Positions 10,190 to 42,365 of a stretch of DNA of 64,000 nucleotides are shown here, one piece after another. The stretch comes from Candidatus Latescibacterota bacterium (GTDB lineage Bacteria; Latescibacterota; UBA2968; UBA8231), in NCBI GenBank assembly GCA_965203175.1, contig OZ241867.1, positions 3,296,001-3,360,000 on the forward strand. The letters run 5' to 3'. Within the stretch, counting starts at the first letter, position 1, and each line of letters begins with the position of its first letter. Both the position numbers and the translations under genes were made by a program. The notes under the pieces are model-generated. The model saw nothing but the letters and a program-made list of their open reading frames with translations. It did no database searches and was not told the DNA's origin.

Positions 10190-10234
10190 GTCAGTCCCTT
10201 TTCATTGAAACTAACCGAGAACGCGGCCACAAAT

Positions 10235-12217: not shown

Positions 12218-12250
12218 TTGACTTGCAATCTATAGATGGTTATCTATACT
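12218..12250 (+). promoter_or_regulatory. Sigma70-like promoter overlapped by palindrome TATAGAT-GGTT-ATCTATA
   Basis: TTGACT(12218)-17-TATCTA or TTGCAA(12223)-16-TATACT in an AT-rich divergent gap; inverted repeat at 12231-12248. Confidence 0.45.
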
Positions 12251-12310
12251 GAATAGCTACAAACCAATCCATAACCATAAGCTTTCTTGCAATTCCACAA
12301 GGAGGAATCT

Positions 12311-16880: not shown

Positions 16881-16899
16881 GGGTGAGGTTGGGCAATAT

Positions 16900-17730
16900 T
16901 CAGCGCTGGACGTACTTGTAGGCAGCGGCTGCATTCTGCCAAAAGTATTGCTGTGCCGCTAATGTCCCCTTGGACTTGAAATAAGCGCCGACAATGGCCT
17001 GCACGGTGGCGTGGTCGCTCGATATTTCACACACCGGCCAGTTGGAGCCGTATATGAGCCGGTCCTCGCCGAACGCGTCCCACAACACTTCTAGCGTGGG
17101 CAGATAAAATTCGAGGTCGGCCGGGGCTGGCTGCACCTGACTGTACTCTACTAGGCCGGAAACCTTGCAAAAAATCTGCGGCCAGGCCGCGGCTGTGCGC
17201 ACGTATTCGACCCAGTCGGGATCAGGCGCTTGGCCGTCTATCTTTGGCTGGCCGCAGTGGTTGAGTACCCAGCGCAGATCGGGCACTTGGCGCGCCACCA
17301 ACCATAGCGATTCGGCCTGCTGGGGGGACACGCTGATATCCACTTGTAGGTCGTGGTCGGCCATTGTCTTGGCGCGCTCCATGGCACTGCCGTCGTCTGC
17401 GACAAATTCAGGGCCAGCGCGAATACCTCTATACAGCGGGTCGGCGGCAAAACGCTTGATGTGGGTACCGAAGCTGGGTCCGGAATCGACGTGTCCGACG
17501 ACTCCAACGATCCAAGAGTCGTTGGCAGCTAGGTCGAGAAGCCACTGATTATCTTCGAGCCAGACACTAGCCGCCGTCACTACGGTGCCGCTGACGCCGG
17601 TGGGTTCGGCCACTGCTCTGTGGTGCTCTGGCAGTACGGTCCGGTAAATGGGTCCGTCCTCTTTATTGGGCCAAGGCACTCCCTGCGGGCGATGGGGATC
17701 GTAGAAATGGGTGTGAGCGTCGATGATCAC
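16900..17730 (-). CDS. Amidohydrolase_2 family metal-dependent hydrolase (sugar lactonase-like)
   Basis: IIDAHTH, LNHCGQP, CKVSG and RLIYGSNWPV motifs. Confidence 0.88.
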   Translation of the reverse strand: MIIDAHTHFYDPHRPQGVPWPNKEDGPIYRTVLPEHHRAVAEPTGVSGTVVTAASVWLEDNQWLLDLAANDSWIVGVVGHVDSGPSFGTHIKRFAADPLYRGIRAGPEFVADDGSAMERAKTMADHDLQVDISVSPQQAESLWLVARQVPDLRWVLNHCGQPKIDGQAPDPDWVEYVRTAAAWPQIFCKVSGLVEYSQVQPAPADLEFYLPTLEVLWDAFGEDRLIYGSNWPVCEISSDHATVQAIVGAYFKSKGTLAAQQYFWQNAAAAYKYVQR

Positions 17731-21201: not shown

Positions 21202-21252
21202 GTTACAAAAGCGCGTTCCAATGTACACCAAAAACAGCGCAGTGTCATAGAA

Positions 21253-22539
21253 ATGAAACACGTCATCATTGTAGGAGGAGGTTTTGCCGGTTTGAATGCG
21301 GCCAAGAAGCTCGGCGGCGCTCCTGATGTCCGCGTTACACTTGTCGATCGACAGAACTATCATTTGTTCCAACCTCTGCTCTATCAGGTGGCAATGGCTG
21401 GTTTGTCGCCGGCCGATATTGCCGCACCCATCCGCAGTCTACTCGCGCGCTACGAGAACGTCTCCGTGCTGCAGGGCAAGATCGAGAGTGTCGATTTGCA
21501 GGCCCAGACCGTCTCGGCGGATTTTGGTCAGCTCGAATTCGACTATTTGCTGCTTTGCTGTGGGGCGATTCCGACTTACTTCGGTCATGCGAACTGGGAA
21601 GAGTACGCCCCTAGCCTGAAAACTGTGCCGCAAGCAACCGAGATTCGCCGTCGCCTACTCAGTTCTTTCGAAGCGGCGGAACGGGTTGGCGATTCCGCAA
21701 GACGCCGACAGTTGTTGACGTTTGTCGTCATCGGTGGCGGGCCTACCGGAGTTGAGTTGGCGGGCGCTATCGGCGAAATGAGTCGTTTCACGCTCGCCAG
21801 GGACTTTCGCAAGATCGACACCAAACTCACGCGGGTCATTCTCATTGAATCCGGCCCGCGAATCCTCCCATCGTTCAGCGAGAAACAGGCGAGCCGCGCA
21901 ACGCGAGATTTGGAAAAGCTCGGTGTGCAAGTCTGGCCGAACAGTCTTGTGACCAGAATTGACGAGGACGGCGTTGAAGTGGGTGCGAAGCGAATCTACT
22001 CTTCAACCATACTCTGGGCAGCCGGAGTACGCGGAGTTGAATTCGCCCGGCGCGATGATTTGGAGGTAGATGAGCAGGGACGCGCAGTCGTCGACAAAGA
22101 TCTGAGCATTGACGGATACCCAAACGCGTTTGTCGCCGGCGACCAGGCAAGCTTCACCCACCAGACCGGCAAGCCGCTTCCGGGCACAGCACCAGTGGCA
22201 ATGCAACAGGGTCGTTTTGTGGCTAGGACGATCCTCCGCGACCTTGCAGGCAAACCGCGCGAAGCCTTTCGCTTTGTCGACAGGGGCCAGATGGCGACAA
22301 TCGGTCGCAGCCGCGCCATTGTCGAAATCGGCAAGCTGCGATTCTCCGGTTGGTTTGCGTGGCTCACCTGGTTGGTGGTGCACATCTACTTTCTCGTCGG
22401 CTTCAAGAACCGGCTATTCGTCGTGCTGAATTGGGCTTGGTCCTATGTGACGTTTCGACGCGGTGCCCGATTGATCGTCGAGCGCGAGTGGAGATTCAGT
22501 AAGATCGACGCCAACGACCAGACGCCATCAAAAAAATAA
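21253..22539 (+). CDS. ndh: Type II NADH:quinone oxidoreductase
   Basis: GGGFAG, FQPLLYQVA, GGGPTGVELAG, AGD and C-terminal WLxVHIxFL motifs. Confidence 0.9.
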   Translation: MKHVIIVGGGFAGLNAAKKLGGAPDVRVTLVDRQNYHLFQPLLYQVAMAGLSPADIAAPIRSLLARYENVSVLQGKIESVDLQAQTVSADFGQLEFDYLLLCCGAIPTYFGHANWEEYAPSLKTVPQATEIRRRLLSSFEAAERVGDSARRRQLLTFVVIGGGPTGVELAGAIGEMSRFTLARDFRKIDTKLTRVILIESGPRILPSFSEKQASRATRDLEKLGVQVWPNSLVTRIDEDGVEVGAKRIYSSTILWAAGVRGVEFARRDDLEVDEQGRAVVDKDLSIDGYPNAFVAGDQASFTHQTGKPLPGTAPVAMQQGRFVARTILRDLAGKPREAFRFVDRGQMATIGRSRAIVEIGKLRFSGWFAWLTWLVVHIYFLVGFKNRLFVVLNWAWSYVTFRRGARLIVEREWRFSKIDANDQTPSKK

Positions 22540-22583
22540 AAAGGCGCTATTTTCAGGAGGCCGTGGCCTTGGCTTGGGAACGG

Positions 22584-24578
22584 TCAGTACATCACTGGAA
22601 TTTCATTGCCCACTGTGCCGGTAAACGCGTCAATGACCAGCCACAGACCTCCGGTGGCGAATTGACCGGCGATCAGGCCGAGGAAAAAGGGGCGGATTTT
22701 GTGGTATAGACCAACGCCGCCGTAGCGCAGGATGACGAGTTTGATCAGCCAAGCCAAAAAGACGGAGAACCAGATGTAGCGCATGGTCCACCCGGCGCTG
22801 ACGGCAAAGCCCAGCGGGTGGAAGGGCCACCACATCAGGCGCTGGCGGGCGATCATGAGGAGGGCCATAACTAGGCCGCCGCTCAAGGTCCAGAGCCAGC
22901 CGTCGACGCTGACTCCGGAGGGCTCATTCAATTTGCGCAGGGCGAATTTAGAGGGATAGCCCGGGAAGCTCTGGCCGAAGAACTGGTTGTGGAGATTGAC
23001 CCCGCCATAGTCATAGGCCAGGTGGAGGGTGTAGTAGATGGAGACGGCTAGAGTGATGAACATGGCCCCGGCAATGCCCCACAAGAGCCGGCGCCGGTTG
23101 CCCGTGGTCTCGCTGGTCAGGCGCAGGCTGTTGGACAGGGGCGCCATCATAAAGACCAGCAATTCGCCGACCCAGATGAGGGAGTAGGCCGCGGCCACCA
23201 TGCCCTTGGCCCCCAAGGCCGGGACGCCTACCCCGGAAACCACGAAACCGAGGGGCACCATGGCCGGGCTCAATGTGGGGATGCCGGCCTCGACAATGGC
23301 GCGCGTCAGGCCGATGAAGATGACGAGGGCCGAAAAGACGAACAGCGGCGCGACCCAGGCGGGAATGCCGCTTTGCCACAGCCAGAGGGTCATGCCCGCG
23401 GTGCCGATGAGAAGCCCCAACAGGGCGCTGCGGTAGGACATGATCTCATCGGCATCGTCGCCCGAGGCCTTCTTGGACACGGCTTGGCGCCACACCTCGG
23501 CTAGGTGATGCCGTCCCACCCACAGGCCCGCCCCTACCATTACAATCAGAGCTCCCATCATCTGGTGGCCGGTCACTGGAGTGCTCCAAGGGCCGAGGGT
23601 GGCCTGTAGAGTGTCGATGCCCAACAGGCCGAGGACGTGTTGTTGCAGCGTATAGACCAGAAGGAAGAACCACAGGCTGAGCGAGAGGGTGGAATTGATG
23701 AGGAAGGAGAAGCCCAGCATGAGGAAATTGAGGTTGACCGGCAGATTGGCGCCGAAGAAGGACACGCTGGTCTTCAGACTGATCTGGGCCACGGAGGGGA
23801 AATAGTGGTGCAGGGCATTGAGGCTGCCGACTAGGAAAGGGATGGCAAAGCCGATCCACATGAGCCTGTTTTTAAAAAAGGGCTTGAGCAGGGAGGATCG
23901 GCCCTCGTCCTCGATCATGGCTAGGGCCACCTGGGCCAAGGGATAGGCTAGGCGCTCGTGTTCGACCCACTGGCGGCGCAGGATCACGGCAATGGAGATG
24001 AGGGTGAGGTACAAGGCGGCGTAGAACAGCAGCCAGTAGCCGAGGGGGGGCAACCAGTTGGCCCAGGGGATGGCTGTGGTGCCGATACTGCCTTCGTAGA
24101 AACCGCGCACGGCCTCGGGGTCGCCCATCAGCATCCATTCGGTGAGATGGGGATGGACGACTTCGGCCCATTTGTTCTCGGCCGAGGCATAGTAGTAGGT
24201 CCCGGTAATCATGGGCAGGAGCATGCCGGTTACGCCCCGGGAGGGGATGGCCGCGGCGACCATCATCATAATGGCGATGGTGACCAGTTCGCCCCATTGC
24301 AGACCCCATTGCCGCTTGGGCAGGGCCAGCACCACGTGGACGGTGATCAGAAGAAAAAAAAGCAGACAGTACGCCGCTGGGGTCGACGAGGAAAAGCCCA
24401 TGGGCGTGCCCTTGACCAGCATGGTGGTATGGGGCACGCCGAGGGCAATGGCAACGCACAGCAGGGCACCGAGAAACAGGCCGCGGAAAGTGATGTGGGC
24501 GTTGGGGCGTTCCCGGGCTCGGGGCGCGGCGCGTTCGGCGAGACGGGCCCGCAGACTGGCGGGGATTTTTCTTTTCAA
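22584..24578 (-). CDS. DUF6785/DUF6784-type polytopic membrane protein
   Basis: RRQWVEHERLAYP, WWPFHPLG and PFFLGLIAG motifs; paralog of 14940-16880. Confidence 0.75.
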   Translation of the reverse strand: MKRKIPASLRARLAERAAPRARERPNAHITFRGLFLGALLCVAIALGVPHTTMLVKGTPMGFSSSTPAAYCLLFFLLITVHVVLALPKRQWGLQWGELVTIAIMMMVAAAIPSRGVTGMLLPMITGTYYYASAENKWAEVVHPHLTEWMLMGDPEAVRGFYEGSIGTTAIPWANWLPPLGYWLLFYAALYLTLISIAVILRRQWVEHERLAYPLAQVALAMIEDEGRSSLLKPFFKNRLMWIGFAIPFLVGSLNALHHYFPSVAQISLKTSVSFFGANLPVNLNFLMLGFSFLINSTLSLSLWFFLLVYTLQQHVLGLLGIDTLQATLGPWSTPVTGHQMMGALIVMVGAGLWVGRHHLAEVWRQAVSKKASGDDADEIMSYRSALLGLLIGTAGMTLWLWQSGIPAWVAPLFVFSALVIFIGLTRAIVEAGIPTLSPAMVPLGFVVSGVGVPALGAKGMVAAAYSLIWVGELLVFMMAPLSNSLRLTSETTGNRRRLLWGIAGAMFITLAVSIYYTLHLAYDYGGVNLHNQFFGQSFPGYPSKFALRKLNEPSGVSVDGWLWTLSGGLVMALLMIARQRLMWWPFHPLGFAVSAGWTMRYIWFSVFLAWLIKLVILRYGGVGLYHKIRPFFLGLIAGQFATGGLWLVIDAFTGTVGNEIPVMY

Positions 24579-24733
24579 GCCGGATGCCTAATTGCAGTCG
24601 CTCGATGGGCTGAGTGCGGGGATTTTGTGGAGGCCAAGCCCTGGCCTATCTTTGTCCCAACCTATGTTTTCCAGCCGAAGTTTGTCAATGTCTTGTTGGG
24701 TCCGATGGACCACTTAGAAAAGGGAGGGCGGAA

Positions 24734-25972
24734 GTGAACGGCGTGAGGGAATCTGCAAAAATCCCGAGACAGAAAAAGCCCTTTGATCGCATTCTAGGGC
24801 ACCAGTACACCGTCTTCGACGGGCTAGCTGGGATGCAGGTGGAAGACATCTACCAAGATCAGCGTGGCCTGCTGTGGATCGCCACAGCCGACGGCGGCGT
24901 GAGCCGGTTCGACGGAACGCACTTCGATACCTTTGGCCTGTCGGATGGGCTTCCCAGTCTCACGGTATCGACCATCGCCGAGGACGCAGACGGGCGACTG
25001 CTCTTTGGTACGCTCGGCGGCGGACTGGCGGCCTATGACGAGCGCGGTTTTCAGGTGTACACCACCGAGCACAGGCTACCCTCCAACGACATAGTGAGCC
25101 TGCAACCGCAGGCCGATGGTTCAATACGGGTGCTGACCGATGGAGGGATAGGCTGGTTTGCCGAGGGGCGATGCGTAGAGCGCGTGACAGAAATTGCGGG
25201 TCAGCCGCTAGGGTGGGTGTACGACATGGCCACTGACACAACGGGTACGACGTGGCTGGCGACGCAGCAACGGGGGACCATCAGCCTGGACGGTCGGCGC
25301 ATGAGTGCGGAGAATGGCGCAATGCAGTGGCCGTGGAAGTTTGCCCAAGACGCCTCTGGTCCTCTGTGGATCGCCTTTCGCTACGTTGGCACCAAAGTCG
25401 TTATAGGCCGCTACGATCCAGACAGTCAACGGCTCGACCTGATCGAGGCAGACGCAGCTATCGAAGGGACGGAGGCCGTAAATCACGGTACTCGCCATGT
25501 GCGCTTGGACGATAAAGGCCGGTTGTGGATGGCTCGCCAGGGCGTGCTAGTGTACGACGGGAAGGAATGGCATCCTTTTTCCGCTGGCTTGCCGGATGTT
25601 CACTTTTCGGATGCGCGGCTGACCTATGCGGACCGCGAAGGAAATATCTGGGTGGGATTGTGGGGCGGCGGACTGATTTTTTGTGATCCGGTTAGTGTTC
25701 AGTTATACACCGGAGCGGATGGCCTGCCCGACAGCGGGGTCCACCAGCTCAGCGAAGACCATCAAGGCCGGGTCTGGATCGGCACGATGGGGGGGCTAGC
25801 TTGTCTTGAAGACGGCCGGATTCGCTCAGTGGAGACCGGGCACAAGGTCACGGCGTTGGCGATAGACCGCCAAGGACAGATCTGGCGCGAGAGCCCCGAG
25901 GGGTCTGTCCGTCAATGGCATTCTGGCTCTGACGGCCGACCCTCAACAAGGGTGTCTGTGGATTGGGACTAG
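24734..25972 (+). CDS. N-terminal part of a split sigma-54 activator: two-component-regulator-type beta-propeller
   Basis: GTG 24734 after GGGAGG. Repeated DGLP...I.ED..G.LW.GT.GG blades; similarity is lost after GQIW (about 25886). Confidence 0.7.
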   Translation: MNGVRESAKIPRQKKPFDRILGHQYTVFDGLAGMQVEDIYQDQRGLLWIATADGGVSRFDGTHFDTFGLSDGLPSLTVSTIAEDADGRLLFGTLGGGLAAYDERGFQVYTTEHRLPSNDIVSLQPQADGSIRVLTDGGIGWFAEGRCVERVTEIAGQPLGWVYDMATDTTGTTWLATQQRGTISLDGRRMSAENGAMQWPWKFAQDASGPLWIAFRYVGTKVVIGRYDPDSQRLDLIEADAAIEGTEAVNHGTRHVRLDDKGRLWMARQGVLVYDGKEWHPFSAGLPDVHFSDARLTYADREGNIWVGLWGGGLIFCDPVSVQLYTGADGLPDSGVHQLSEDHQGRVWIGTMGGLACLEDGRIRSVETGHKVTALAIDRQGQIWRESPEGSVRQWHSGSDGRPSTRVSVDWD

Positions 25973-25982
25973 CGGCGGAGGC

Positions 25983-27455
25983 GTGCTGAAGTACGATGGC
26001 CGGGGGTTTCAGAGCATCCGTTTGGGCAAATCCACCTTGGAGAATATCGTCGAGGCCATCCTGCGCGATAGTCGGGGCCGGCTGTGGTTCGGGACGAGGG
26101 CGGGGCTGATTGCGTATCAACCTGGCAATACGCCCCCGGGTATCGTGATTCGCCAAGTTGTGGCGGGGCGTCTGTTGGAGATGCCCCAAGCCGTGTCCTG
26201 TCCAGATAGCACCCCTGAGATTCAGTTCCACTTCCAGGGCCTTAGCTTCCGAAGCGGGGCCGAGCAGATGCGCTACAGCCATCGGCTCGTCAGCCACAGC
26301 CCGGCAGAAGAGTGGAGTGCGTTCACGTCTTCCAACAGAGTGTCGTACAACGGCGTACCGGTCGGCCAGTTCCGCTTTGAGGTACGGGTTTTAGATCGGG
26401 ATGGCCTCATGTCGGAAGTCGCTAGCCTCGATGTACAGGTGTTTGCCGACGAGAAGAGCGTGCGCCTTCAGCGCTTAGAACACATGCTGCGGGATGCGGA
26501 TCAGGACTTTCTCTATCAGAGCCAAGCCATGACCCAGCTCTTAGAGAGGATCGAGCAGATGGCCGATACTGATATGACGATGCTGGTGCTAGGCGAGACC
26601 GGCGTGGGCAAGGGCGTGCTCGCCCAGAGGATCCACAACCTGAGCCGACGCCGAGGGCAGCCCTTTGTCGCGCTCAATTGCGGCTCCCTGCCCGCCGGGC
26701 TGATTGAGAGCGAGTTGTTCGGCCACGAGCGAGGGGCTTTTACTGGTGCCGTGAAGCGGCATATCGGCTGTTTTGAACGGGCTAACTACGGCACCTTGTT
26801 CCTCGATGAAATCGGCGATCTGTCGTTAGAAGTCCAACAGGCACTGCTCCGCATTCTGGAGAATCGCTACCTGACGCGCGTCGGCGGCGAGCAGTCGATC
26901 CCGGTGGATGTGCGGGTGATTGCGGCGACCAACAAGGATCTGAAAGAGGCCATCCGGGCGGGGACGTTCCGGGAAGATCTGTTCTACCGCTTGAGCGCGT
27001 GGCCGGTGAAGCTGCCGCCGCTGCGGGAGCGTCGAGAGGATATCCCGCTCTTGACGGCGCATTTTGCGCGTCGGTATGCCCAAAATTTGCAGCGATCGGT
27101 GCCAGCGTTGGGCGACGGAGTGGTGAAGCATTTGCAGGCGTATGCGTGGCCGGGAAATGTGCGCGAGTTGGAGCATCTGATCTGGCGGGCGGTGGTGCTA
27201 TGCCAAGGGGAGGCCATTCAGATGGAGGATGTGCCGCTGGCTGCTGAAGACGAAGCCACGGAGAAGCCTCTTGAGCCGCCGCCCGCGCCAGTTGAAGCCG
27301 AATTCAAAGACGAGAAACAGCAAATCGCGGAGGCGCTACAAGCGACCAACTGGATGGTTTATGGCGAGCGGGGTGCGGCGCGCTTGTTGGGCATGAACCC
27401 GGAGAAGCTGCGCTACCGCATGCAGAAGTACGGGTTGCGCCGACCGAAGAGGTAG
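25983..27455 (+). CDS. C-terminal part: last propeller blades, Y_Y_Y domain, sigma-54 AAA+ enhancer-binding domain and Fis-type HTH
   Basis: GETGVGK, ESELFGHERGAFTGA, LFLDEIG, WPGNVRELE and GAARLLG motifs. This frame stays open upstream as GLSVNGILALTADPQQGCLWIGTSGGG. Confidence 0.88.
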   Translation: MLKYDGRGFQSIRLGKSTLENIVEAILRDSRGRLWFGTRAGLIAYQPGNTPPGIVIRQVVAGRLLEMPQAVSCPDSTPEIQFHFQGLSFRSGAEQMRYSHRLVSHSPAEEWSAFTSSNRVSYNGVPVGQFRFEVRVLDRDGLMSEVASLDVQVFADEKSVRLQRLEHMLRDADQDFLYQSQAMTQLLERIEQMADTDMTMLVLGETGVGKGVLAQRIHNLSRRRGQPFVALNCGSLPAGLIESELFGHERGAFTGAVKRHIGCFERANYGTLFLDEIGDLSLEVQQALLRILENRYLTRVGGEQSIPVDVRVIAATNKDLKEAIRAGTFREDLFYRLSAWPVKLPPLRERREDIPLLTAHFARRYAQNLQRSVPALGDGVVKHLQAYAWPGNVRELEHLIWRAVVLCQGEAIQMEDVPLAAEDEATEKPLEPPPAPVEAEFKDEKQQIAEALQATNWMVYGERGAARLLGMNPEKLRYRMQKYGLRRPKR

Positions 27456-27491
27456 TACGCAACACTCCCGAGTATAGAGACGCGCCGGCCA

Positions 27492-27549
27492 ACACGGAAA
27501 GTCGTGGAGAATCCACGGAAAATCGTGGAAAGCCCACGGAAAATCGTGG
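27492..27549. promoter_or_regulatory. Three palindromes (C/A)CACG-N6-CGTGG at 21-bp period; putative upstream activator sequences
   Basis: Units start at 27492, 27513 and 27534, about 120-180 bp upstream of a -24/-12 promoter. Confidence 0.7.
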
Positions 27550-27670
27550 AAAGTCTTGCACTACGGCTGAGGCCGCGCAGCGCAGAAAAATTCGTCTCAT
27601 ACGTTAAGTGTCATTCCTTCAATTCTTTAGGGTGTTCCTAAAGAATTTTTTTGTGCGGGGTCTCTTGGGG

Positions 27671-27686
27671 TGGCACGAAATATGCT
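27671..27686 (+). promoter_or_regulatory. Sigma-54 (-24/-12) promoter
   Basis: TGGCACGAAATATGCT matches TGGCACG-N4-TTGCW with exact GG-N10-GC spacing and one mismatch; lies downstream of a bEBP gene. Confidence 0.8.
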
Positions 27687-27775
27687 CATACCTAATTGAT
27701 CCTTCACATCCTCCAGTACATAGAGCCGCGCTGGGAACCGGCTACTACACCACCCACCGACTTTGGAGGTGAACT

Positions 27776-29854
27776 ATGCGCTGCATGCTCTTTGCAATTC
27801 TACTGTTGGTCGCTCCGCGCGGCGTAGTTGCCCTAACGTGGGATTTCGACGACGGCATCACTTGGGGCTGGACCGCCCGGGAAGGTTTTCATAGCAATAC
27901 AAGAAGCGGTTTTGAACTACTACAGAGCGAAGTCATCGATGGGGTCTGGCGCATCGCGCCCGTGCCCGGTCGCAGACCCACCGTTCAATTGTGTTCACCG
28001 TTGATCGGGGAGGACTCGGCCCTGTTCGACCGCCTCACCCTACGGCTGCGCCTCATACACCATAGTCCCACCGAAGAACAATTCGCGATGTACTGGTCCA
28101 ATGCTGTGAGCCGCCCTGACTCTGACACAAAAGGAGTATTTGGTACGGGACGGCAGCAATCCTATCCCCTTGAATGGGAAGAAATCACCATAGACCTACG
28201 CGCCTTGGCAGAAGCAGACACAGAATGGGCGATCACCTGGCAGGATACTCTTTTTAATTTTTCTCTAGACATGCTGTTATATCGAGACTCTCAGGATGTG
28301 GACAACCACCCAAAGTTTTTAGAAATAGACTGGATCCAGCTTATAGGAGCCGAAGAGTTGGCGCAGGGAGAATTGTCGCCTCGGGATCTCGGTGTGGAGT
28401 TGGAGCCGCCCGGCACGCTGTTCGCCGACCCCGACTTTTTCCCGCTCGGAGAGGGCATCGGCACCCCAAACTATCGGCGAGCATCGCAAGGTGCGGTGGG
28501 CGACGTAGACGGCGATGGCGATGCGGATCTCGTGGTGGCCTGGAACCGCCTTGTGGACCGCGGCAGAGAACTGGGCTGGACCGTGGCGTCCAACGACGGG
28601 CTAGGCGGCTTTGAACCCACCCAAGAAGTCCCCCTTTTAACCACATTTGACTTTCCATTCATGGATCTCTGGGGAAGCGACTTCGACGACGATGGACTCC
28701 TAGATCTGGTCGTTGCCGAAAGCGGAATCGTCGAACTGTGGTACAACTGGGGCGACGGCTTTGATCTCACCCTGCAACTGTCCGATGTCTGGCCCATTGG
28801 CTTAGCCGATGGCGACGGTGACGGCGATACGGACCTGTTGGTCTGGGAGTACGACGCGTTGTCCCGAAAAGTGATTCTGTGGATTAACGACGGCTACGAG
28901 TTTGTCCGCGGTGAGGAATTTGTCCTCGGCAGCGAAGAGCATCTCCTTGCCTACCTACCCGCCGGGCAACCCTTAGGCGAAGCTGCGAGCCTGTTGTGGC
29001 ACCAGCCGCAGGGGCCTTGGCAACTGACCCGGCCGTGGGCCGCCAGCCAAGAACCACTGCGCTCTTTCGAAGCCGGGGTCAATCCCTATGCCCTGCACTT
29101 ACTGGCAGATCTCGACGGCAATGGGATGGTGGACCTACTCGGCTCCCCTGAGAGCATAGATAGGTTCGGTGAAACCGACTACTACGGCTTGGCTCTGTGG
29201 CGTCTGGACGCTTCCGGCGGGATGGCACGCCATTACTTGCTCGCCTGGAAGGCGTTCATAGCGCACGAAGCCACCGCCAGCGACCTCAACGGCGATGGCG
29301 TGCTGGATTTGGCTATGGTCGCTGGCAACTTGACCATCGGTCGTCCAGCTCTATTGGTGTGGCTCGGCCAGCGCAACGGCGCACCCGTCTTCGAAGGCTA
29401 TTACCCCTTATCCGGCGAGGGCAATCAGGTCCTCGCCAGCGATGTCAACGGCGATGGCGACCTCGATCTGGTCGTGCTGGGAACGAATCCGATAAGTGGT
29501 CTCGGCGGCGTCTTCGTCTTGATCAACCAAGGCAGCTCGGCCACCGCCGTAGCGGCCGAGGTGGCCACGCCAACTACCTTTGCTTTAGGTGCCAACTATC
29601 CCAATCCGTTCAATCCCGCCACAACCATCCCCTTGACCGTGCCCGCTGGAGCCAAAAACGTGGACTTAACTATCTACAATGTCTTGGGGCAGCCGCTGCG
29701 TCGAGTGTGGACGGGTTCTCTGCCTGCCGGCGAGCATCGGCTGACTTGGGATGGCCGGGATGCGCAAGGCCGACCTGTCGCCACTGGGGTCTATGTGTAT
29801 CGGTTGCAGGTGGACGAGCAGACGCGCACCCGCAAAATGGTTAAACTTGAATAG
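27776..29854 (+). CDS. Secreted FG-GAP/VCBS-repeat protein with C-terminal T9SS type A-like/FlgD-Ig domain
   Basis: SD GGAGGT, signal peptide, multiple GDVDGDGDADL repeats, NYPNPFNP...WDGRDAQGRPVATGVYVY. Confidence 0.88.
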   Translation: MRCMLFAILLLVAPRGVVALTWDFDDGITWGWTAREGFHSNTRSGFELLQSEVIDGVWRIAPVPGRRPTVQLCSPLIGEDSALFDRLTLRLRLIHHSPTEEQFAMYWSNAVSRPDSDTKGVFGTGRQQSYPLEWEEITIDLRALAEADTEWAITWQDTLFNFSLDMLLYRDSQDVDNHPKFLEIDWIQLIGAEELAQGELSPRDLGVELEPPGTLFADPDFFPLGEGIGTPNYRRASQGAVGDVDGDGDADLVVAWNRLVDRGRELGWTVASNDGLGGFEPTQEVPLLTTFDFPFMDLWGSDFDDDGLLDLVVAESGIVELWYNWGDGFDLTLQLSDVWPIGLADGDGDGDTDLLVWEYDALSRKVILWINDGYEFVRGEEFVLGSEEHLLAYLPAGQPLGEAASLLWHQPQGPWQLTRPWAASQEPLRSFEAGVNPYALHLLADLDGNGMVDLLGSPESIDRFGETDYYGLALWRLDASGGMARHYLLAWKAFIAHEATASDLNGDGVLDLAMVAGNLTIGRPALLVWLGQRNGAPVFEGYYPLSGEGNQVLASDVNGDGDLDLVVLGTNPISGLGGVFVLINQGSSATAVAAEVATPTTFALGANYPNPFNPATTIPLTVPAGAKNVDLTIYNVLGQPLRRVWTGSLPAGEHRLTWDGRDAQGRPVATGVYVYRLQVDEQTRTRKMVKLE

Positions 29855-29912
29855 GCGATAGGGCTTGGAGATGGGGAGCTAACCTCACGACCACAAACTT
29901 TGGAGGTATATT

Positions 29913-32048
29913 ATGCGCCGCGTTCTCTTTGCAATGTTGTTGGTGGCTGCTCCACACGGAGTCTCTGATTTAACGTGGGATTTTTCTGCGGGCTGGGCGG
30001 CACAGGAGAGTTCCGCAACGACTGCCATGGTGAGTAGCGAAATCGTGACGTCGAGTGCTCGTCTGGACGCAGACAGTACTCAGAGCCAGCCGTCGGTTGT
30101 GATCATCACCGGCGAAGTCCAGAATCCTCGCTCGCGAAAAATCACATTTAGATACGAATCGCCGTCGGCGCTGGAAAGCTCCGAGCAGCGCGTTGCACTC
30201 GACAGCTTGGATCGCTTCGCCTTCGAACTGCCTGTCGTCCGGGGGACCTTCGTCAGTGGGTATTTCGAAGGCGGGCAGCCAAGATGGGAATGGGTGCAGT
30301 GGTTAGGATCGTTCCTTTTCGAGCGCAGATCCCTGGCTCTTTTCGTCGAACCCGGCGATAGTCTGCACGTGGCCGTGGAGGAGGGCTTTTTCGCTTCTTC
30401 CTATTCGTTCAGCGGCTCCAACGCGGACAACAGCCGCTTCACTTCTGAGTGGATCCCGCAATTCTACTCCTTACGCCTCGACCGCGACGCATACAAGGGT
30501 CTGGGGATCGAGGATTTCAAGGACCTAATGGAACAGTGGCGACGGGATCAGTTCGAGTTCTTGGCCGAGGAGCGCGAGCAATACGCGCTGTCTTCAGGGT
30601 GCGTCGACTATGTGACGAACTACGTCAACTACGAGTGGGCCCTTAGGATGGTTGATTACCCGTCGCGTTACCAGTTTGCCAACGGACGAGAGAACAGAGA
30701 CATCACCCCGGAGTACTACGACTTCCTGCAGGAATTTCCCCTAGTGGACGAAAAGGCCATAGGCATAGGCCATTATCGCTGGTTTCTGGAACGAGCCTTG
30801 GACCGTGACCATGACGATGACCATAGCCCCAAGCTGTCTAAGATGTATGATCTATCGGGTTTGGAGTTGTCGGAGGAGACCCACGCGCAACTCGACTCCC
30901 TGTACGAAAAAGACGGCCGACAGCCCGTGCTATCGAAAATGGTCGATTTGTCGGCGTTTGGTGTTGCGGAAAGCGCTCAATCGCAACTGGACTCCCTGTA
31001 CGAAAAAGAGGGCCGATGGCTCAAGCTTTCCGAGCGGTACGATTTGTCGGCGTTTGGCGTTGCGGAAAGCGCTCAATCGCAACTCGACTCCCTGTACGAA
31101 AAGTCCGATAGGTCCCTCAACTTCTACTGGTTCAGTGAGGAAGAAAAGCCTAAGGCGGATACGACGGGCGGGGAGTTGGTGCTCCACATACCTTCTGGAG
31201 TGCGGTTGGATTCCCTAGCCAAAGAGCCGCCCAAGCTATCGGCGAAGATGGATCTATCGATTTTGAAGCTGTCGGAAGCCGCTCAGGCTCAGCTCGACTC
31301 GATGTACGAACATCGTCAACCGCTCGGGCTGTCGGCGAAGATTGATCTATCGGGATTGGGGCTGTCGGAAGCTGCTCAGGCCCAACTCGACTCGATCTAT
31401 GCCGGAAAAGGACATTGGTTTGGGTCTAGATACAATCTGGCCAAAGAAAAACTCGAAGGGAGAGTGCTCTACTGGTTTTTAGCCGGAGAGTTGATCAATA
31501 CGCTCAAGCGCGGTAGCAGTGAAGCCTTTGCGTGGGCCCAGCACAAGTGGGAAGAGTTCCAAGAGGTCAACCCGTATCCGGAATACAATGAGGCCGTGCT
31601 AGTGGCTCTTGCTGCCGCCCTGAAGCTACAACCCGGAGAACCCGCACCCGACTTCACGCTCGACGACCTCGACGGTCAGCCCGTATCGCTGAGCCAGTTC
31701 AAGGGGAAAGTGGTTCTGCTCGATTTCTGGGCGAGTTGGTGCGGGCCGTGTATCAACGACCTACCCTATCTCCGAGAAGTCAAGAAAAAGACGTCTGACT
31801 GGCCGGTCGTCTTCCTCAACATATCGCTGGACGCGGATGATGCTGCTTGGCGAGAGGCGATTGATGAACACGAGATCAAAGGCGTCCACGTGCGCGCGGA
31901 CGGCTGGGGCGCAGAGGTAGCCAAAACCTACCAAGTGATGGGCATCCCTTCGTATTATTTGGTGGACTCACAAGGGCTGATCGTAGAGAATCATGGCCTA
32001 AGGGGGGATGCAGACACGACGGTAGCGACGATCGAGGAGAGTTTGTGA
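29913..32048 (+). CDS. Exported TlpA/ResA-family thiol-disulfide oxidoreductase with long repeat-containing N-extension
   Basis: APDFTL...VLLDFWASWCGPC and GIPSYYLVD motifs; signal peptide; SD GGAGGT. Confidence 0.88.
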   Translation: MRRVLFAMLLVAAPHGVSDLTWDFSAGWAAQESSATTAMVSSEIVTSSARLDADSTQSQPSVVIITGEVQNPRSRKITFRYESPSALESSEQRVALDSLDRFAFELPVVRGTFVSGYFEGGQPRWEWVQWLGSFLFERRSLALFVEPGDSLHVAVEEGFFASSYSFSGSNADNSRFTSEWIPQFYSLRLDRDAYKGLGIEDFKDLMEQWRRDQFEFLAEEREQYALSSGCVDYVTNYVNYEWALRMVDYPSRYQFANGRENRDITPEYYDFLQEFPLVDEKAIGIGHYRWFLERALDRDHDDDHSPKLSKMYDLSGLELSEETHAQLDSLYEKDGRQPVLSKMVDLSAFGVAESAQSQLDSLYEKEGRWLKLSERYDLSAFGVAESAQSQLDSLYEKSDRSLNFYWFSEEEKPKADTTGGELVLHIPSGVRLDSLAKEPPKLSAKMDLSILKLSEAAQAQLDSMYEHRQPLGLSAKIDLSGLGLSEAAQAQLDSIYAGKGHWFGSRYNLAKEKLEGRVLYWFLAGELINTLKRGSSEAFAWAQHKWEEFQEVNPYPEYNEAVLVALAAALKLQPGEPAPDFTLDDLDGQPVSLSQFKGKVVLLDFWASWCGPCINDLPYLREVKKKTSDWPVVFLNISLDADDAAWREAIDEHEIKGVHVRADGWGAEVAKTYQVMGIPSYYLVDSQGLIVENHGLRGDADTTVATIEESL
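30828..31400 (+). repeat. Five roughly 32-aa (96-bp) coding repeats LSxxxDLSxxxLSExAQAQLDSLYE
   Basis: Units 2 and 3 are nearly identical in DNA (GATTTGTCGGCGTTTGG.GTTGCGGAAAGCGCTCAATCGCAACT). Confidence 0.85.
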
Positions 32049-37698: not shown

Positions 37699-39459
37699 TT
37701 ATCTAACCAACATCGTCTTGCCCACGAACTCCGCCTCTGCGTCTTCGGTTTTCAACCTATAGAAGTACAAACCGTCGCTGAGTTCGCGGCCGGCATCGTC
37801 TCGCCCGTCCCAGACGATACTATAGTTGCCGGGATTCTGATGGCCCAAAGCAAAGGTTCGAACGTGCTGTCCGGCTACATCGTAAATAGCTAACTCAGCC
37901 GATGTGGCGGTGGCTATTTCATACGAGATGGTCGGGGTAACGGGTTTGAGCGCGCGAAGTTTGGCCTTCAGTTCGGCGGGCCATTCGTCCGGATCGGTCG
38001 CCTCTCGCCAAGGCATGCGCTGACGGACCTCCTCGGCGAATAGAAGCTGGCGTTCCAACTCTTCGGACCATTCCTCTTCGGACCATTCGTCCGGATCGGT
38101 CGCCATTGCCTGCTGCCAGATCCTATTATCCGAACTCGGCTTAGCCGCGCCTTTGGCCTTCGCCGGTTGCGGTTCCGTGGCGATGATCTGATTGACGAGC
38201 CCTACTTGACGGGCGATATCCATGATCTGGACGATCTGACTGTGCGTGGCGCGCTCGTCTCCTTGGATAAAAATCATCGTGGTGTTGTCCAACTGTTGTC
38301 TCTTCGCCTGCAATTCCTCTTTGAGGGTTGTAAACGTCACTGACTTGTTGTTCAGCTTCATGTTGCCGTCTTGATCCACGATGAGAAAGATATTCTTCTT
38401 ACTCGACTCAGTCGCGACTTTGGACACTTTCGAAGTGATGCCACAAGAGGGCAGCGTCACGGCGGCTAGGGGGCATAGCAGTACCGCCGCTAACACGCGC
38501 GCCCGCGTGCCCATCCGGCGCGCACTGCCGCCAAGCGTCCTGCGGATTCTCAGTGCCAAATCCGATTCGGTTGCTGCAAAAGCGTTCATCGTGGGGATTC
38601 TCCTCATCAAAGGGTTTAAGTGAGCCACCTGTTCGGCGACGTGAGCTAGGCCGCGCGCATAGGCTTCTGAGCGGCCGGTGACGCATACGACGAGATCGTC
38701 GCAGGCTTGTTCGGCTTCCCGCCGCAACATGCGACCGCACAGCCATACGGCGGGGTGGAAGAACAATACAGCGGAGACTAGTCGGTGCAGCAGCATCGTG
38801 AGGTTGTCCCAGCGGCGCACGTGTGCTAGCTCGTGCGTGAGGACCAAGGAGAGTTCGTCGGTGCGCAGTTTCTCCACGAGATCGGTGGGCAATACAATGA
38901 TCGGTCTCAGAATGCCCAGCGCCATCGGCGAGTTGATAGAAGGGGAGGTTGCCACTTCGATCTTGGGATAGCCATCGAGTATCCGACGTGCTTGCTGCAG
39001 GGCGTCGAAAAGCGGGCCGTCGTGCTGTACCTGCGCTTGTTGTCGCAAGTGCCAGACGATGCCGTAGCCGATCAGAAGTCGCCCGATGAGCAGCGCCGCA
39101 CCTATTAGCCACAGTATTACTCCCCAGCCGGCTGTAGTAAGTTGCACACTACTTGTGGCAATTGTCGGAGAAGCCGCTACTTGCATCGTTGGATGCTCGA
39201 CGTGCAAGGACGGGGCATTCCAATCAGGTCCCAAGAGTGATACCAATGGCGTGAATAGCGAATAGGGCGAACTGACCGCGATGGAAACGAGCGGCTTGAG
39301 CAGCACGACCGCCCACAACAGGTGACGCAAGGCCGGCGACTTTATTGGCAATAGGCGACTGGTGACTAGGACTAAGACCGCCAGCGCTGCTAACTCGATA
39401 CTTAGCTGACTAAACCAACCGAATAGCTGGCTACCTAACTCGTTTAAAGCCGCGTTCAT
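37699..39459 (-). CDS. BlaR1/M56 metallopeptidase fused to an ExbD-like domain, acidic helical repeats and a FlgD-Ig domain
   Basis: HELAH, FFHPAVW, EQACDD; IQGDERATHSQIVQIMD; WDGRDDAGRELSDGLYFY. Confidence 0.88.
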   Translation of the reverse strand: MNAALNELGSQLFGWFSQLSIELAALAVLVLVTSRLLPIKSPALRHLLWAVVLLKPLVSIAVSSPYSLFTPLVSLLGPDWNAPSLHVEHPTMQVAASPTIATSSVQLTTAGWGVILWLIGAALLIGRLLIGYGIVWHLRQQAQVQHDGPLFDALQQARRILDGYPKIEVATSPSINSPMALGILRPIIVLPTDLVEKLRTDELSLVLTHELAHVRRWDNLTMLLHRLVSAVLFFHPAVWLCGRMLRREAEQACDDLVVCVTGRSEAYARGLAHVAEQVAHLNPLMRRIPTMNAFAATESDLALRIRRTLGGSARRMGTRARVLAAVLLCPLAAVTLPSCGITSKVSKVATESSKKNIFLIVDQDGNMKLNNKSVTFTTLKEELQAKRQQLDNTTMIFIQGDERATHSQIVQIMDIARQVGLVNQIIATEPQPAKAKGAAKPSSDNRIWQQAMATDPDEWSEEEWSEELERQLLFAEEVRQRMPWREATDPDEWPAELKAKLRALKPVTPTISYEIATATSAELAIYDVAGQHVRTFALGHQNPGNYSIVWDGRDDAGRELSDGLYFYRLKTEDAEAEFVGKTMLVR

Positions 39460-39535
39460 CGCGGGTCTCCTTTTCTGCGCTCAAGGGTTGGGTCCAGTTC
39501 CTCCCGGATCGCCGTCAATTCCTCGTCCGTGAGCG
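39456..39535 (-). pseudogene. 3' remnant of blaI carried along in the tandem duplication
   Basis: Matches 41883-41962 (CCGGATCGCCGTCAATTCCTCGTCCGTGAGCG identical) and supplies the SD of 37699-39459. Confidence 0.8.
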
Positions 39536-39582
39536 ACTAGTCATCTGGCAGTTTAACCATCTTGCGGGTGCACGTTTGATGG

Positions 39583-41886
39583 TTATCTAACCAATATCAT
39601 CCTGTACGCTATATGCTTGTTCGCTTCTCTGTCGGATTTCAATGAATAGAAGTACACGCCGTTGCTGCGCTCGCGGCCGGCATCGTCCCGTCCGTCCCAG
39701 ACGATGCTATATTTGCCGGGACTCTGATCGCCCAAAAAAAAGGTTCGAACGAGCTCTCCGGCTACATTGGAAATAAATAATTCTTCAGCCGGTGAGGCGG
39801 TGGCTATTTCATACGAGATATTACCGGGTTTGAGTGCGAGGAGCTGGGTTTTGAGTTCGTCAGACCACTCGTCTGAATCGGTCTCTTCCACCTGCCGCCA
39901 AAGCCTTCTCTGACGGACCTTCTCGGCGATTTCCTCGATGGTACTGTCAGGCTCAAGCCCGAAAAGCAGGGTTTTGAGTGCGAGGAGCAGGGTTTTGAGT
40001 TCGTCAGACCATTCATCTGGATCAGTGGCCATCGCCTCTTGCCGGATTTTATCCCAGCTCTGACGGACCGCATAGGCGATTTCCTTGATGGTTCTGTTGG
40101 GTTTGAGTGCGAGGAGCTGGGTTTTGAGTTCGTCGGACCATCTATCTGGATTAGTGGCCATCGCCTCTTGCCAGATTCTGTCATGCCGACTTGGCTCAAC
40201 CGCTACTTTGGTCACTTCCGGTTGCGGTTTCGTGGCCACTAACTGATCGACAAGCCCTACTTGGCGGGCGAAATCCATGATCCCGGCGATCATTCCGTGC
40301 GGAGCACGCTCGTCTCCTTGGATGATAATCATCGTAGTATTGTCCAATAGTCGTCTCTTCGTCCGCAATATATCTTTAAGATCCGTAAACGCCACTGATT
40401 TGTCGTTCAGCATTATATTGCCGTGCTGGTCCACGACGATAAAGGGATTTTCCGCGGTAAGGTTATCGTCATTCCGACTCAACTCAGTCGCGACATTGGC
40501 CACCTCCGGAGTAGTGTCACAAACGACCATATCGACGAGCCCTACTTGGCGGGCGACATACATGATCTGGACGATCTGCCCGTGCGGGGTGTGCCCGTCG
40601 CTTTGGATGACAATCATCGTAGTATTGTCCAACAGTCGTCTCTTCGCCTGCAGTTCTTCTTTAAGCGTTTCAAAAGTCACCGACTCGTCGTTCAGCTTCA
40701 TGTTGCCGTCTTGATCCACGACCAGAAGGATACGCTCATCCTGACCCGACAGCAGTCGTCTCTTCGCCTGCAATTCCTCTTTGAGGGTCGCAAACGTCAC
40801 TGGTTTGTCGTCTTGCTTCACGAGGATAAAGGGACGCTTATCCTGACTCGACTCAGCCGAGATTTTGGATACAGAGGGTAGGGTTATGGCGGCTAGGGGG
40901 CATAGCAATACCGCCGCCAACACGCGCGTCCGCATGCCCATCCGGCGCGCACCGCCGCCAAGCGTCCTACGAATTCTCAGCGCCAGATCCGATTCCGCTG
41001 CAAAGGCGTTCATGGTGGGGATTCTCCTTATCAAAGGGTTTGAGTGGACCACCCGTTCAGCGACGTGAGCCAAGCCGCGCGCATAGGCTTCTGAGCGGCC
41101 AGTGGAGCATACCACCAGATCGTCGCAGGCCTGTTCGGCTTCCCGCCGCAACATGCGACCGCACAGCCACACAGCGGGATGGAAGAATAATACAGCGGAG
41201 ACTAGTCGGTGCAGCAGCCTTGTGAGGTTGTCCCAGCGGCGCACGTGTGCCAGTTCGTGCATGAGGATCAAGGCGAGTTCGTCGGTGCGCAGTTTCTCTA
41301 CGAGATCGGCGGGGAAAACAATGATCGGTCTCAGGATGCCCAGCGCCATTGGCGAACTGATAGAAGGAGAGATCGCCACCTCGACCTTGGGATAGCAGTC
41401 GAGCGTCCGACGCGCTTGCCGCAGAGCGTCGCAAAGTGGCCCGTCGTGCCGCACTTGTACCTGCTGCCGCAAGCACCAGACGATGCCGTAGCCGACCAGA
41501 ATCCGCCCGATGAGCAGCACCGCACCTGCTATCCACAGTATCGCTCCCCAGCCGGCTGTAGTAAGCGGCACACTACTTGTGGCAATTGTTGGAGAAGCCG
41601 CTACTTGCATCGTTGGGTACTCGACGGGCGAGAATGCGAGGGTGTCCCGACTGGGTTCCAAGAGTGACACGAACGGTGTAAATAGCGTATAGGGCGAGCT
41701 GATTGCGATGGCGACGAGCGGCTTGAGCAGCACGATTGCCCACAACAGGTGGCGCAAGGCCGGCGACTTTATTGGCAATAGGTAACTGGCGACTAGAACT
41801 AAGACCGCTAGCGCCGCTAGTTCGATACTTAATTGACCAAACCAGCCGAATAGTTGGTTACCTAACTCGTTCAAAGCCGCATTCAT
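39583..41886 (-). CDS. BlaR1/M56 metallopeptidase fused to about 2.5 ExbD-like domains, three WSDELK repeats and a FlgD-Ig domain
   Basis: HELAH; close paralog of 37699-39459; ATGA overlap with blaI. Confidence 0.88.
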   Translation of the reverse strand: MNAALNELGNQLFGWFGQLSIELAALAVLVLVASYLLPIKSPALRHLLWAIVLLKPLVAIAISSPYTLFTPFVSLLEPSRDTLAFSPVEYPTMQVAASPTIATSSVPLTTAGWGAILWIAGAVLLIGRILVGYGIVWCLRQQVQVRHDGPLCDALRQARRTLDCYPKVEVAISPSISSPMALGILRPIIVFPADLVEKLRTDELALILMHELAHVRRWDNLTRLLHRLVSAVLFFHPAVWLCGRMLRREAEQACDDLVVCSTGRSEAYARGLAHVAERVVHSNPLIRRIPTMNAFAAESDLALRIRRTLGGGARRMGMRTRVLAAVLLCPLAAITLPSVSKISAESSQDKRPFILVKQDDKPVTFATLKEELQAKRRLLSGQDERILLVVDQDGNMKLNDESVTFETLKEELQAKRRLLDNTTMIVIQSDGHTPHGQIVQIMYVARQVGLVDMVVCDTTPEVANVATELSRNDDNLTAENPFIVVDQHGNIMLNDKSVAFTDLKDILRTKRRLLDNTTMIIIQGDERAPHGMIAGIMDFARQVGLVDQLVATKPQPEVTKVAVEPSRHDRIWQEAMATNPDRWSDELKTQLLALKPNRTIKEIAYAVRQSWDKIRQEAMATDPDEWSDELKTLLLALKTLLFGLEPDSTIEEIAEKVRQRRLWRQVEETDSDEWSDELKTQLLALKPGNISYEIATASPAEELFISNVAGELVRTFFLGDQSPGKYSIVWDGRDDAGRERSNGVYFYSLKSDREANKHIAYRMILVR

Positions 41887-42290: not shown

Positions 42291-42301
42291 AGCAAGTCCT
42301 T

Positions 42302-42365
42302 TCAACTAAGAATTTAGTTGAGTATACTCGACGGCAATTGGTTTGTCAACTAAAATTTTAGTTGA
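42302..42365 (-). promoter_or_regulatory. Sigma70 promoter flanked by two 20-bp palindromic operators
   Basis: TTGACA(42349-44)-17-TATACT(42326-21). Operators TCAACTAAGAATTTAGTTGA (42302-21) and perfect TCAACTAAAATTTTAGTTGA (42346-65). Confidence 0.85.

Follow-up and report, generated by a model that had tools for sequence, protein, structure and literature searches.

The locus at 24734-32048 bp of a 64-kb stretch of Candidatus Latescibacterota DNA (contig OZ241867.1, positions 3,296,001-3,360,000; hereafter the window, with an overall GC of 0.588) contains coding sequence for a sigma-54 activator, followed by a short repeat array, a -24/-12 type promoter and two genes for exported proteins. 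This arrangement raises the question of whether the locus is a complete sigma-54 circuit, as a sequence-only reading had proposed, and whether the repeats are the binding sites of the adjacent activator. Comparison with related loci indicated that the region is probably one copy of a modular sigma-54 cassette of paralogous one-component bacterial enhancer-binding proteins (bEBPs) found in Latescibacterota-like bacteria. The circuit is not complete in the window, however, because the activator gene has a 425-bp out-of-frame deletion.

Organization of the locus and its relatives

A genome scan with the activator yielded 15 loci (L001-L015), among which L001-L013 showed 69-94% identity and L001 was the closest relative of the window. 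The comparative set consisted of the 12 loci with downstream sequence (L001-L010, L012 and L013), which together with the window gave 13 aligned main cassettes. L011, whose contig ends within the activator gene, was left out, as were L014 and L015, which encode unrelated bEBPs (42-48% identity). In addition, 120 homologous proteins were listed, restricted to proteins of 859-2450 aa. The following features were distinguished in the window:

24734-25972, plus strand: 5' fragment of the activator gene (open reading frame 1, ORF1), encoding the N-terminal Reg_prop beta-propeller sensor (Pfam Reg_prop, E 7.8e-26)
25903-25904, plus strand: deletion junction, located by blastn against L001 and L002
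25983-27455, plus strand: 3' fragment of the activator gene (ORF2), 490 aa counted from the first GTG, within a frame open from 25866
27492-27549, no strand assigned: putative enhancer, an array of upstream activating sequences (UAS) with three dyads and six alternating CACGG/CGTGG half-sites (motif scan, Tandem Repeats Finder)
27621-27654, plus strand: terminator-like hairpin with a run of seven T, AATTCTTTAGG-N5-CCTAAAGAATT (terminator scan match at 27621-27647)
27671-27686, plus strand: sigma-54 type -24/-12 promoter TGGCACGAAATATGCT, with GG at 27672-27673 and GC at 27684-27685
27776-29854, plus strand: target gene 1, a predicted exported FG-GAP repeat protein of 692 aa with a C-terminal type IX secretion system (T9SS) type A sorting domain
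29913-32048, plus strand: target gene 2, located 58 bp after gene 1, a predicted exported 711-aa protein with a C-terminal TlpA/ResA-like thioredoxin-fold domain

All 12 related loci show the same order of elements: past the stop codon of the activator come a half-site array, a conserved stretch of about 90 bp, a hairpin with a T-run and, finally, a GG-N10-GC element. This constant layout, together with half-sites that track the helix-turn-helix (HTH) domain of the activator (see below), bears out the earlier assignment of the region as a sigma-54 enhancer and promoter cassette. Three additional cassettes, one of them a relic, were found in the related loci:

L006:9761-9931: two window-type dyads, then a hairpin and a promoter that precedes a PD40 gene; no activator adjoins the cassette
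L004:13150-13332: two ATACG-N6-CGTAT dyads after a second paralogous activator (9949-13128)
L004:9822-9932: relic cassette with one dyad and a hairpin, without a promoter

The presence of an array without a neighbouring activator in L006 implies that a window-type paralogue would act there in trans.

Putative enhancer array

The three dyads have the form (A/C)CACG-N6-CGTGG and are located at 27492-27507, 27513-27528 and 27534-27549. Their starts (27492, 27513 and 27534) are spaced by exactly 21 bp, and Tandem Repeats Finder described the array as 2.9 copies of a 21-bp unit with 90% matches. Three CCACG-N6-CGTGG palindromes at 21-bp intervals had been claimed for this site; the spacing is confirmed and the last two dyads are exact, while the first one has one mismatch and reads ACACG instead of CCACG. 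Single dyads of this type are not rare, with 4 matches at <=1 mismatch in 64 kb vs. 3.47 expected. The array, as a cluster, is the sole place in the window with at least 4 CGTGG/CCACG pentamers per 70 bp (0.18 per 70 bp expected); no other cluster of at least 4 CGTGG/CCACG, CGTAT/ATACG or CGTTC/GAACG pentamers in 70 bp was found in the window. One match to CGTAT-N3-ATACG, the dyad of most related loci, was present in the window, which corresponds to the chance level. An Rfam search of 27400-27800 gave 0 matches at E <= 1.

An orthologous array is present in L001. Within the 15 loci, the window-type dyad CACG-N6-CGTGG was found only in L001, at L004:9822 and at L006:9761-9796. L002-L010 contain CGTAT-N3-ATACG exactly three times each, and only in the cassette, with a spacing of 21/21 bp (21/20 in L002). 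Across these nine loci, 30 of 30 columns of the dyad arms are invariant, compared with 4 of 9 in the dyad centres and 7 of 16 in the spacers. Three dyads occur in 11 of the 13 main cassettes, including the window, which thus has a triple-enhancer arrangement of the NorR type; L012 and L013 are arranged differently. The array lies at about -205 to -150 from the predicted transcription start site (TSS) in the window and at about -215 to -150 in every cassette.

Predicted sigma-54 promoter

The consensus of sigma-54 promoters is TGGCAC-N5-TTGCW. The sequence TGGCACGAAATATGCT has the correct GG-N10-GC spacing and one mismatch to this consensus. Taken alone, the pattern is not significant, since there are 2 matches in the window vs. 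2.35 expected. GG and GC are invariant in 13 of 13 aligned cassettes, and the extra cassettes contain the element too (L004:13318 and L006:9917). The -24/-12 promoter proposed earlier was recovered at 27671-27686. The TSS predicted at about 27697 agrees with a count from the GC at 27684-27685 and is retained as a prediction.

Two further matches were rejected. The motif TGGCATCCTCTTTGCT at 51734-51749, located 127 bp before an FG-GAP/ASPIC gene, lies within an AcrB-type ORF without a half-site cluster or hairpin and was attributed to chance, and a TGGCAC-N6-TGC match at L008:11375 is internal to the coding region of a PD40 gene. At L012:11284-11298, a sigma-54 promoter close to the consensus, TGGCACGATAGTTGCA, was observed before an ORF with a signal peptide and no Pfam family; AT-rich DNA lies upstream of it, with no hairpin or repeat array. 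Other matches of the promoter motif scan were L013:611-625 (minus strand) and L014:625-639.

Co-variation of the HTH and the half-sites

A comparison of the HTH recognition helices with the repeats of the adjoining cassettes revealed four classes:

EKLRYRMQKY: CGTGG half-site, CACG-N6-CGTGG three times (window and L001)
ERLRSRMRVF/VY: CGTAT half-site, CGTAT-N3-ATACG three times (L002-L010, 9 loci)
ERLRSRMRYY: ATACG-N6-CGTAT twice (second paralogue of L004)
EKLRYRMRKH: CGTTC half-site, in direct repeats every 11 bp and in one inverted copy (L012 and L013)

Both LRSRMR helix classes use the CGTAT half-site. The half-site changes together with the recognition helix, which supports binding of the repeats by the activator. 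The exact HTH string of the window was found in 11 of the 120 listed homologues, and another four of them, including P0065, differ at one HTH position outside the recognition helix.

The C-terminal part of the activator has a mosaic character. Over residues 1-950, the activator of L001 shares about 91% identity with those of L002 and L010, but this value falls to 73-76% in the final 45 residues. In this terminal segment it is 91-93% identical to the paralogues P0065 and P0053, with which identity is about 63% elsewhere. This mosaic indicates that the HTH and the adjacent enhancer changed together in the lineage of the window and L001, and it points to a joint movement of the DNA-binding module and the enhancer. 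Gene conversion from a paralogous cassette could account for the joint change, as could co-evolution.

Domain composition of the activator

The translation of ORF2 contains the sequences GETGVGKG, GAFTGA and LFLDEIGD (Walker A and B motifs and the loop), which are those of a bEBP AAA+ domain. Pfam matches of ORF2 were Sigma54_activat (PF00158, 1.8e-68), AAA_lid_14 (6e-26), Y_Y_Y (1.2e-6) and HTH_8 (7.9e-6); the last one, scoring 25.9 bits vs. a cutoff of 22, is a C-terminal Fis-type HTH, as expected for a bEBP. ORF1 contains Reg_prop repeats only, and ORF2 begins with one Reg_prop repeat corresponding to the last propeller blade. The intact activator is about 1045 aa long and comprises a double beta-propeller with Y_Y_Y (about 700 N-terminal residues), the AAA+ domain and the Fis-type HTH. 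All of the 120 listed homologues are 862-1081 aa long, and most of them have Reg_prop and Sigma54_activat.

The AAA+ domain matches the structures of NifA, ZraR, NtrC1, FleQ and PspF at E 1e-60 to 1e-75, the closest solved ones being NifA 9qq6, ZraR 1ojl and NtrC1 1ny5/4l4u (E 1e-71 to 1e-75). The sensor matches the periplasmic domains of Bacteroides hybrid two-component systems (HTCS) 3v9f and 4a2l at E 1e-38 to 1e-40. Neither a transmembrane-like stretch (the top 19-residue Kyte-Doolittle mean is 1.14) nor a signal peptide was found in the activator, and the sensor is thus predicted to be cytoplasmic. Every NCBIfam equivalog match of the activator was below its cutoff; the NorR model scored 324.6 vs. 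a cutoff of 476, so the activator is not a NorR equivalog. The gene rpoN was not among the ORFs of the 64-kb window. The literature search found nothing relevant on a propeller, Reg_prop or Y_Y_Y sensor joined to a sigma-54 activator, nor on sigma-54 or rpoN in Latescibacteria. Judging from these matches, the input of the activator is probably an uncharacterised HTCS-like cytoplasmic double propeller, and its paralogue family is expanded.

Deletion in the activator gene

The earlier description of a GAFTGA activator gene holds for the GAFTGA motif, the AAA+ domain and the HTH, all of which are present in ORF2; it does not hold for the gene as one intact unit. ORF1 and ORF2 are in different reading frames of the ORF listing. 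The open frame of ORF1 spans 24614-25972, its true start being GTG 24734, and is closed by a premature TAG resulting from a frameshift. Residues 41-432 of this frame correspond to residues 1-392 of the 1050-aa homologue P0002 (91% identity), and ORF2 corresponds to its residues 533-1050 (90% identity). Similarly, residues 1-392 of the L001 activator match 24734-25909 in frame 2 (tblastn). A blastn alignment with L001 located the break: window positions 21242-25903 correspond to L001 830-5496 and window positions 25904-28104 to L001 5922-8113, so that 425 bp of L001 (5497-5921) are missing from the window and the frame is shifted. The same break was found against L002, where the missing segment is 5495-5921. 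The loss removes residues ~393-532, i.e., about 140 residues of the beta-propeller sensor, as compared with the relatives of about 1045-1050 aa. No microhomology or repeat was seen flanking 25903/25904.

In 10 of the 12 related loci, tblastn gave one continuous frame across all 1045 residues, and the window does not contain the intact full-length bEBP coding sequence of these relatives. Thus, on sequence comparison, the activator gene of the window carries a disabling deletion, and the word "complete" in the earlier description of the circuit has to be dropped. A different disruption was observed in L007, whose activator gene has a frameshift without a large deletion at 5383-5404 and is split by tblastn into two frames. 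The dN/dS ratio between the window and L001 was 0.119 for the N-terminal part and 0.124 for the C-terminal part of the activator, equal to that of the intact neighbouring genes (0.124 for the DUF6785 gene and 0.120 for NDH2); the deletion is thus recent, or an artefact, or the pieces are still functional. No sigma-70-type promoter was reported before 24734 by a promoter scan that may not fit this phylum.

AT-rich stretch and hairpin

The AT-rich stretch noted earlier at about 27585-27655 is real, with a GC of 0.37-0.40 at 27580-27659 vs. 0.588 for the window. It contains the hairpin located between the enhancer and the promoter, with a stem of 10-12 pairs depending on the tool, a predicted RNA folding energy of -13 kcal/mol and z -3.19. 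The hairpin motif is unique in the window, where 0 matches are expected. In 16 of 16 related hairpins the stem is kept, with 12 pairs predicted, while the T-run is conserved and the loop varies freely. Compensatory two-sided changes were found at 2 of the 12 pairs: among the 16 sequences, pair 10/33 is UA in 14, AU in 1 and GC in 1, and pair 11/32 is CG in 14 and UA in 2. One A-C mismatch is present in two of the 16 sequences.

The stem-loop, the U-run and the compensatory changes are those of an intrinsic terminator, and termination is predicted at this site. The stem is AT-rich with 3 GC pairs, which points to a modest terminator strength. A copy of the hairpin at L004:9914 stands behind an FG-GAP gene without a promoter after it, which fits a terminator. 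We therefore regard the hairpin as the probable terminator of the activator gene; its T-tract could also bend DNA.

The earlier reading had noted that looping of bEBPs to sigma-54 often involves integration host factor (IHF). The IHF consensus WATCAANNNNTTR was scanned at <=1 mismatch and gave 27 matches in the window (21.3 expected), none of them in 27550-27670. Consequently, the IHF site was rejected and the stretch is better read as a terminator.

Target genes

The two genes after the promoter both have hydrophobic N-termini, in agreement with the earlier annotation of two exported targets. Gene 1 matches Pfam FG-GAP_3 (6.8e-19) and FlgD_ig (4.9e-12) and NCBIfam TIGR04183 (38.1 bits vs. a cutoff of 23), as is typical of T9SS cargo; its export is predicted, the hydrophobic N-terminus having been judged by a hydropathy heuristic only. 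Gene 2 matches Pfam Redoxin (7.8e-23) and has a CxxC motif at residues 610-613. It is below the NCBIfam cutoffs for ResA (84 bits vs. 170) and TlpA (63.3 vs. 230), and no family match was found for its 570-aa N-terminal part. Five repeats of about 32 aa ending in QLDS(L/M/I)Y were observed at residues ~300-500 of gene 2 (window 30830-31400) and were also visible as DNA self-matches in blastn against L001.

It had been proposed that the first protein is adhesin-like and the second its redox partner. Cysteines of gene 1 are present only at residues 3 and 73, which leaves one in the mature protein. The contents of the related cassettes, judged within the DNA fetched, were as follows: FG-GAP proteins with a C-terminal domain (CTD) in the window, L002 (twice), L003 and L004; PD40 propellers in L002, L006, L007, L009 and L010; CHU_C-CTD proteins in L007 and L008; and TlpA-like proteins in the window, L001, L012 and L013. 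The target classes of the window thus recur after the cassettes of its relatives, combined differently from locus to locus. An FG-GAP gene beside a TlpA-like gene occurs only in the window and L001 (0 of the 10 other loci). With one mature cysteine and a pairing that is not conserved, a dedicated redox partnership is unsupported.

Other observations were made on the target genes. Genes 1 and 2 share a near-identical ribosome-binding site (RBS), signal peptide and LTWDF start (27750-27850 and 29890-29990), which looks like a duplicated 5' module, and a similar leader is present on the FG-GAP genes of L003 and L005. In L001 (7785-8700), the FG-GAP gene is disrupted by frameshifts and the loss of about 1.2 kb, and both the TlpA-like gene and the activator (1045 aa) are intact. 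The 5' untranslated regions (UTRs) of the PD40 genes at L002:7800-7890, L009:7820-7890 and L010:7800-7880 contain a duplicated unit of RBS, ATG and a few codons; these units may represent short upstream ORFs, or else the start region may have been duplicated in tandem.

Comparison with known systems

The mechanism itself is textbook sigma-54 control, and the three-site enhancer has experimental precedent in NorR. According to the paper on Escherichia coli norVW (PMC2831303), the sigma-54 promoter is preceded there by three dyad-symmetric UAS sites for NorR in succession, none of which is dispensable, and the authors' model is that of three dimers, with DNA promoting the active hexameric ring. 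The idea that three dimers template one hexamer, put forward earlier for the window, is therefore already published for NorR; neither is it universal, considering the two-dyad cassettes and the direct repeats of L012 and L013. The window resembles norVW in that its sigma-54 promoter is preceded by three successive dyad sites, activator binding being predicted here. However, NorR senses nitric oxide via a GAF domain, while the sensor of the window activator is a double propeller with Y_Y_Y. The NorR core is GT-N7-AC, whereas the window has CACG-N6-CGTG(G), repeated at exactly 21 bp. In addition, IHF binds the norVW region, and the window has a terminator hairpin between the UAS and the promoter and no IHF-like site.

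Like NtrC, NifA and ZraR, the window activator has a GAFTGA AAA+ domain, an AAA lid and a C-terminal Fis-type HTH; unlike them, it contains no receiver, GAF or PAS input, its N-terminal ~700 residues being propeller and Y_Y_Y. The order of a Reg_prop propeller and then Y_Y_Y is shared with Bacteroides HTCS (3v9f, 4a2l/4a2m and 3va6/3ott; E 3e-40 to 5e-28). In contrast to HTCS, the window sensor has no signal peptide or transmembrane segment, and no histidine kinase, receiver or AraC output was found in the activator by Pfam, the output being a sigma-54 AAA+ motor. As judged from its domains, the activator resembles an HTCS sensor and is not an HTCS member.

Proposed mechanism and alternative explanations

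Domain content, motif positions, the conserved layout, the co-variation of HTH and half-site and the compensatory changes in the hairpin were obtained from sequence and its comparison, and the following steps are predicted from them. The HTH domains of the activator would bind the array, whose six half-sites with their 21-bp period would all be on one DNA face, and would thereby concentrate the protein for ring assembly. A hexamer would assemble on the array and contact the sigma-54 holoenzyme by DNA looping. The terminator hairpin, about 70 bp past the array, would end the activator transcript and insulate the promoter. The -24/-12 promoter, about 25 bp past the terminator, would then drive the operon for the T9SS-sorted FG-GAP protein and the TlpA-like periplasmic thiol-disulfide oxidoreductase. 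In this genome, the switch may be off, or be served in trans by a paralogue of the same HTH class, or be run by the sensor-truncated product of ORF2 if that is translated.

Several observations weigh against this model. The -12 element reads ATGC vs. TTGC in the consensus. The co-variation covers four HTH classes only and hence few independent events, so that it is not statistical proof. The entire intergenic region is strongly conserved in L002-L010, 62 of the 86 alignment columns from the third repeat to the hairpin being invariant, and the conservation of the dyad arms thus partly reflects shared ancestry. Two dyads only are present in the extra cassettes at L004:13150 and L006:9761, which means that six sites are not required everywhere. 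Dyad geometry varies by class, some arrays having convergent half-sites with N6, others N3, and others again direct repeats every 11 bp, and a single binding mode is therefore not evident. The pairing of half-sites in the window is itself ambiguous, as the sequence allows either three CCACG-N6-CGTGG dyads or two of the form CGTGG-N5-CCACG. An RNA fold is also predicted for the alternating inverted repeats (-26 kcal/mol, z -2.8). Finally, GGAGG is located just 1 nt upstream of GTG 25983, itself 11 nt past the ORF1 stop, and this poor spacing makes expression of ORF2 doubtful.

The RNA fold, seen in L008 as well (-19.8 kcal/mol, z -4.6), is the starting point of an explanation that we consider highly improbable, namely that the repeats are nested RNA stem-loops in the 3' UTR of the activator gene, with an effect on stability or termination, or sites of another protein, with the hairpin being a dyad protein site or bending element. 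At sigma-54 promoters, IHF or bent DNA is usually found where the hairpin and its T7 run are placed here, and arm-to-arm co-variation between classes would also keep RNA pairing. However, the direct repeats of L012 and L013 with their 11-bp period cannot pair, the half-site sequence tracks the HTH helix, and the window-type array of L006 stands before a sigma-54 promoter without an upstream activator and so is not in an activator 3' UTR. As for the hairpin, a free loop, compensatory stem changes and a conserved T-run are typical of intrinsic terminators, and its copy at L004:9914 has no promoter after it.

Two other explanations concern the deletion. It is a serious though not favoured possibility that the circuit is a recent pseudogene remnant, in which the activator is dead, ORF2 is untranslated and the FG-GAP/TlpA operon is silent unless otherwise driven. 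The deletion with its frameshift relative to both L001 and L002, the continuous frame of about 1045 aa in 10 of 12 relatives, the poor Shine-Dalgarno spacing before GTG 25983 and the decay of the locus elsewhere (the broken FG-GAP gene of L001 and the frameshifted activator of L007) all argue for it. Set against this are a dN/dS of 0.12 in both activator halves and the intact state of the targets, enhancer, hairpin and promoter. In addition, the paralogues with an identical HTH among the listed homologues could act in trans, and reinitiation is conceivable, as the ORF1 stop is 11 nt before GTG 25983. It is, on the other hand, rather unlikely that the 425-bp deletion arose as an artefact of assembly or consensus calling and that the organism has an intact 1045-aa activator. 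The purifying selection on both halves would fit such an artefact, as would the internally repetitive propeller blades and the possible origin of the window from a metagenome-assembled genome; yet the junction has no repeat or microhomology that would favour a collapse, and natural disruptions exist in chromosome-level relatives, again the L007 activator and the L001 FG-GAP gene.

Other observations

Near-identical loci of the comparative set have differing public phylum labels: most are labelled Candidatus Latescibacterota, and L003, L005 and L008 are labelled Gemmatimonadota/Gemmatimonadetes. One of the conflicting labels is probably a binning or classification error. L011 is labelled Pseudomonadales.

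Elsewhere in the window, two copies of a gene for a 664-aa DUF6785+DUF6784 membrane protein were found on the minus strand (14940-16934 and 22584-24578), both near PhyH and BNR/sialidase-like genes. One of them is divergent from the activator gene, and this arrangement is conserved in L001 and L002. The region 37699-42305 (minus strand) contains a gene for a BlaI-like repressor (Penicillinase_R) and then two for BlaR1-type Peptidase_M56 proteins, which also have ExbD and FlgD_ig domains, an unusual combination.

Implications

For annotation, caution is needed, as the split activator of the window should not be called intact. In the cassette family as a whole, sequence comparison alone suffices to read the enhancer, terminator, promoter and cargo, which gives a confident regulatory map for an uncultured phylum. 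The matched HTH and half-site variants also form a small natural series.

We tentatively propose, as an idea more likely to be wrong than right, that one recombination event could swap the HTH and its enhancer together, since the HTH-coding 3' end of the gene adjoins the array, and that Latescibacterota have used this linkage to diversify a large family of sigma-54 activators with cytoplasmic propeller sensors into channels insulated from one another, each switching on T9SS-exported propeller, FG-GAP or TlpA-like proteins. If this is true, the family would contain a readable recognition code for the Fis-type HTH (RYRMQKY for CGTGG, RSRMRVF and RSRMRYY for CGTAT, and RYRMRKH for CGTTC), and it would be a sigma-54 counterpart of the HTCS regulators of polysaccharide utilization loci in Bacteroides.

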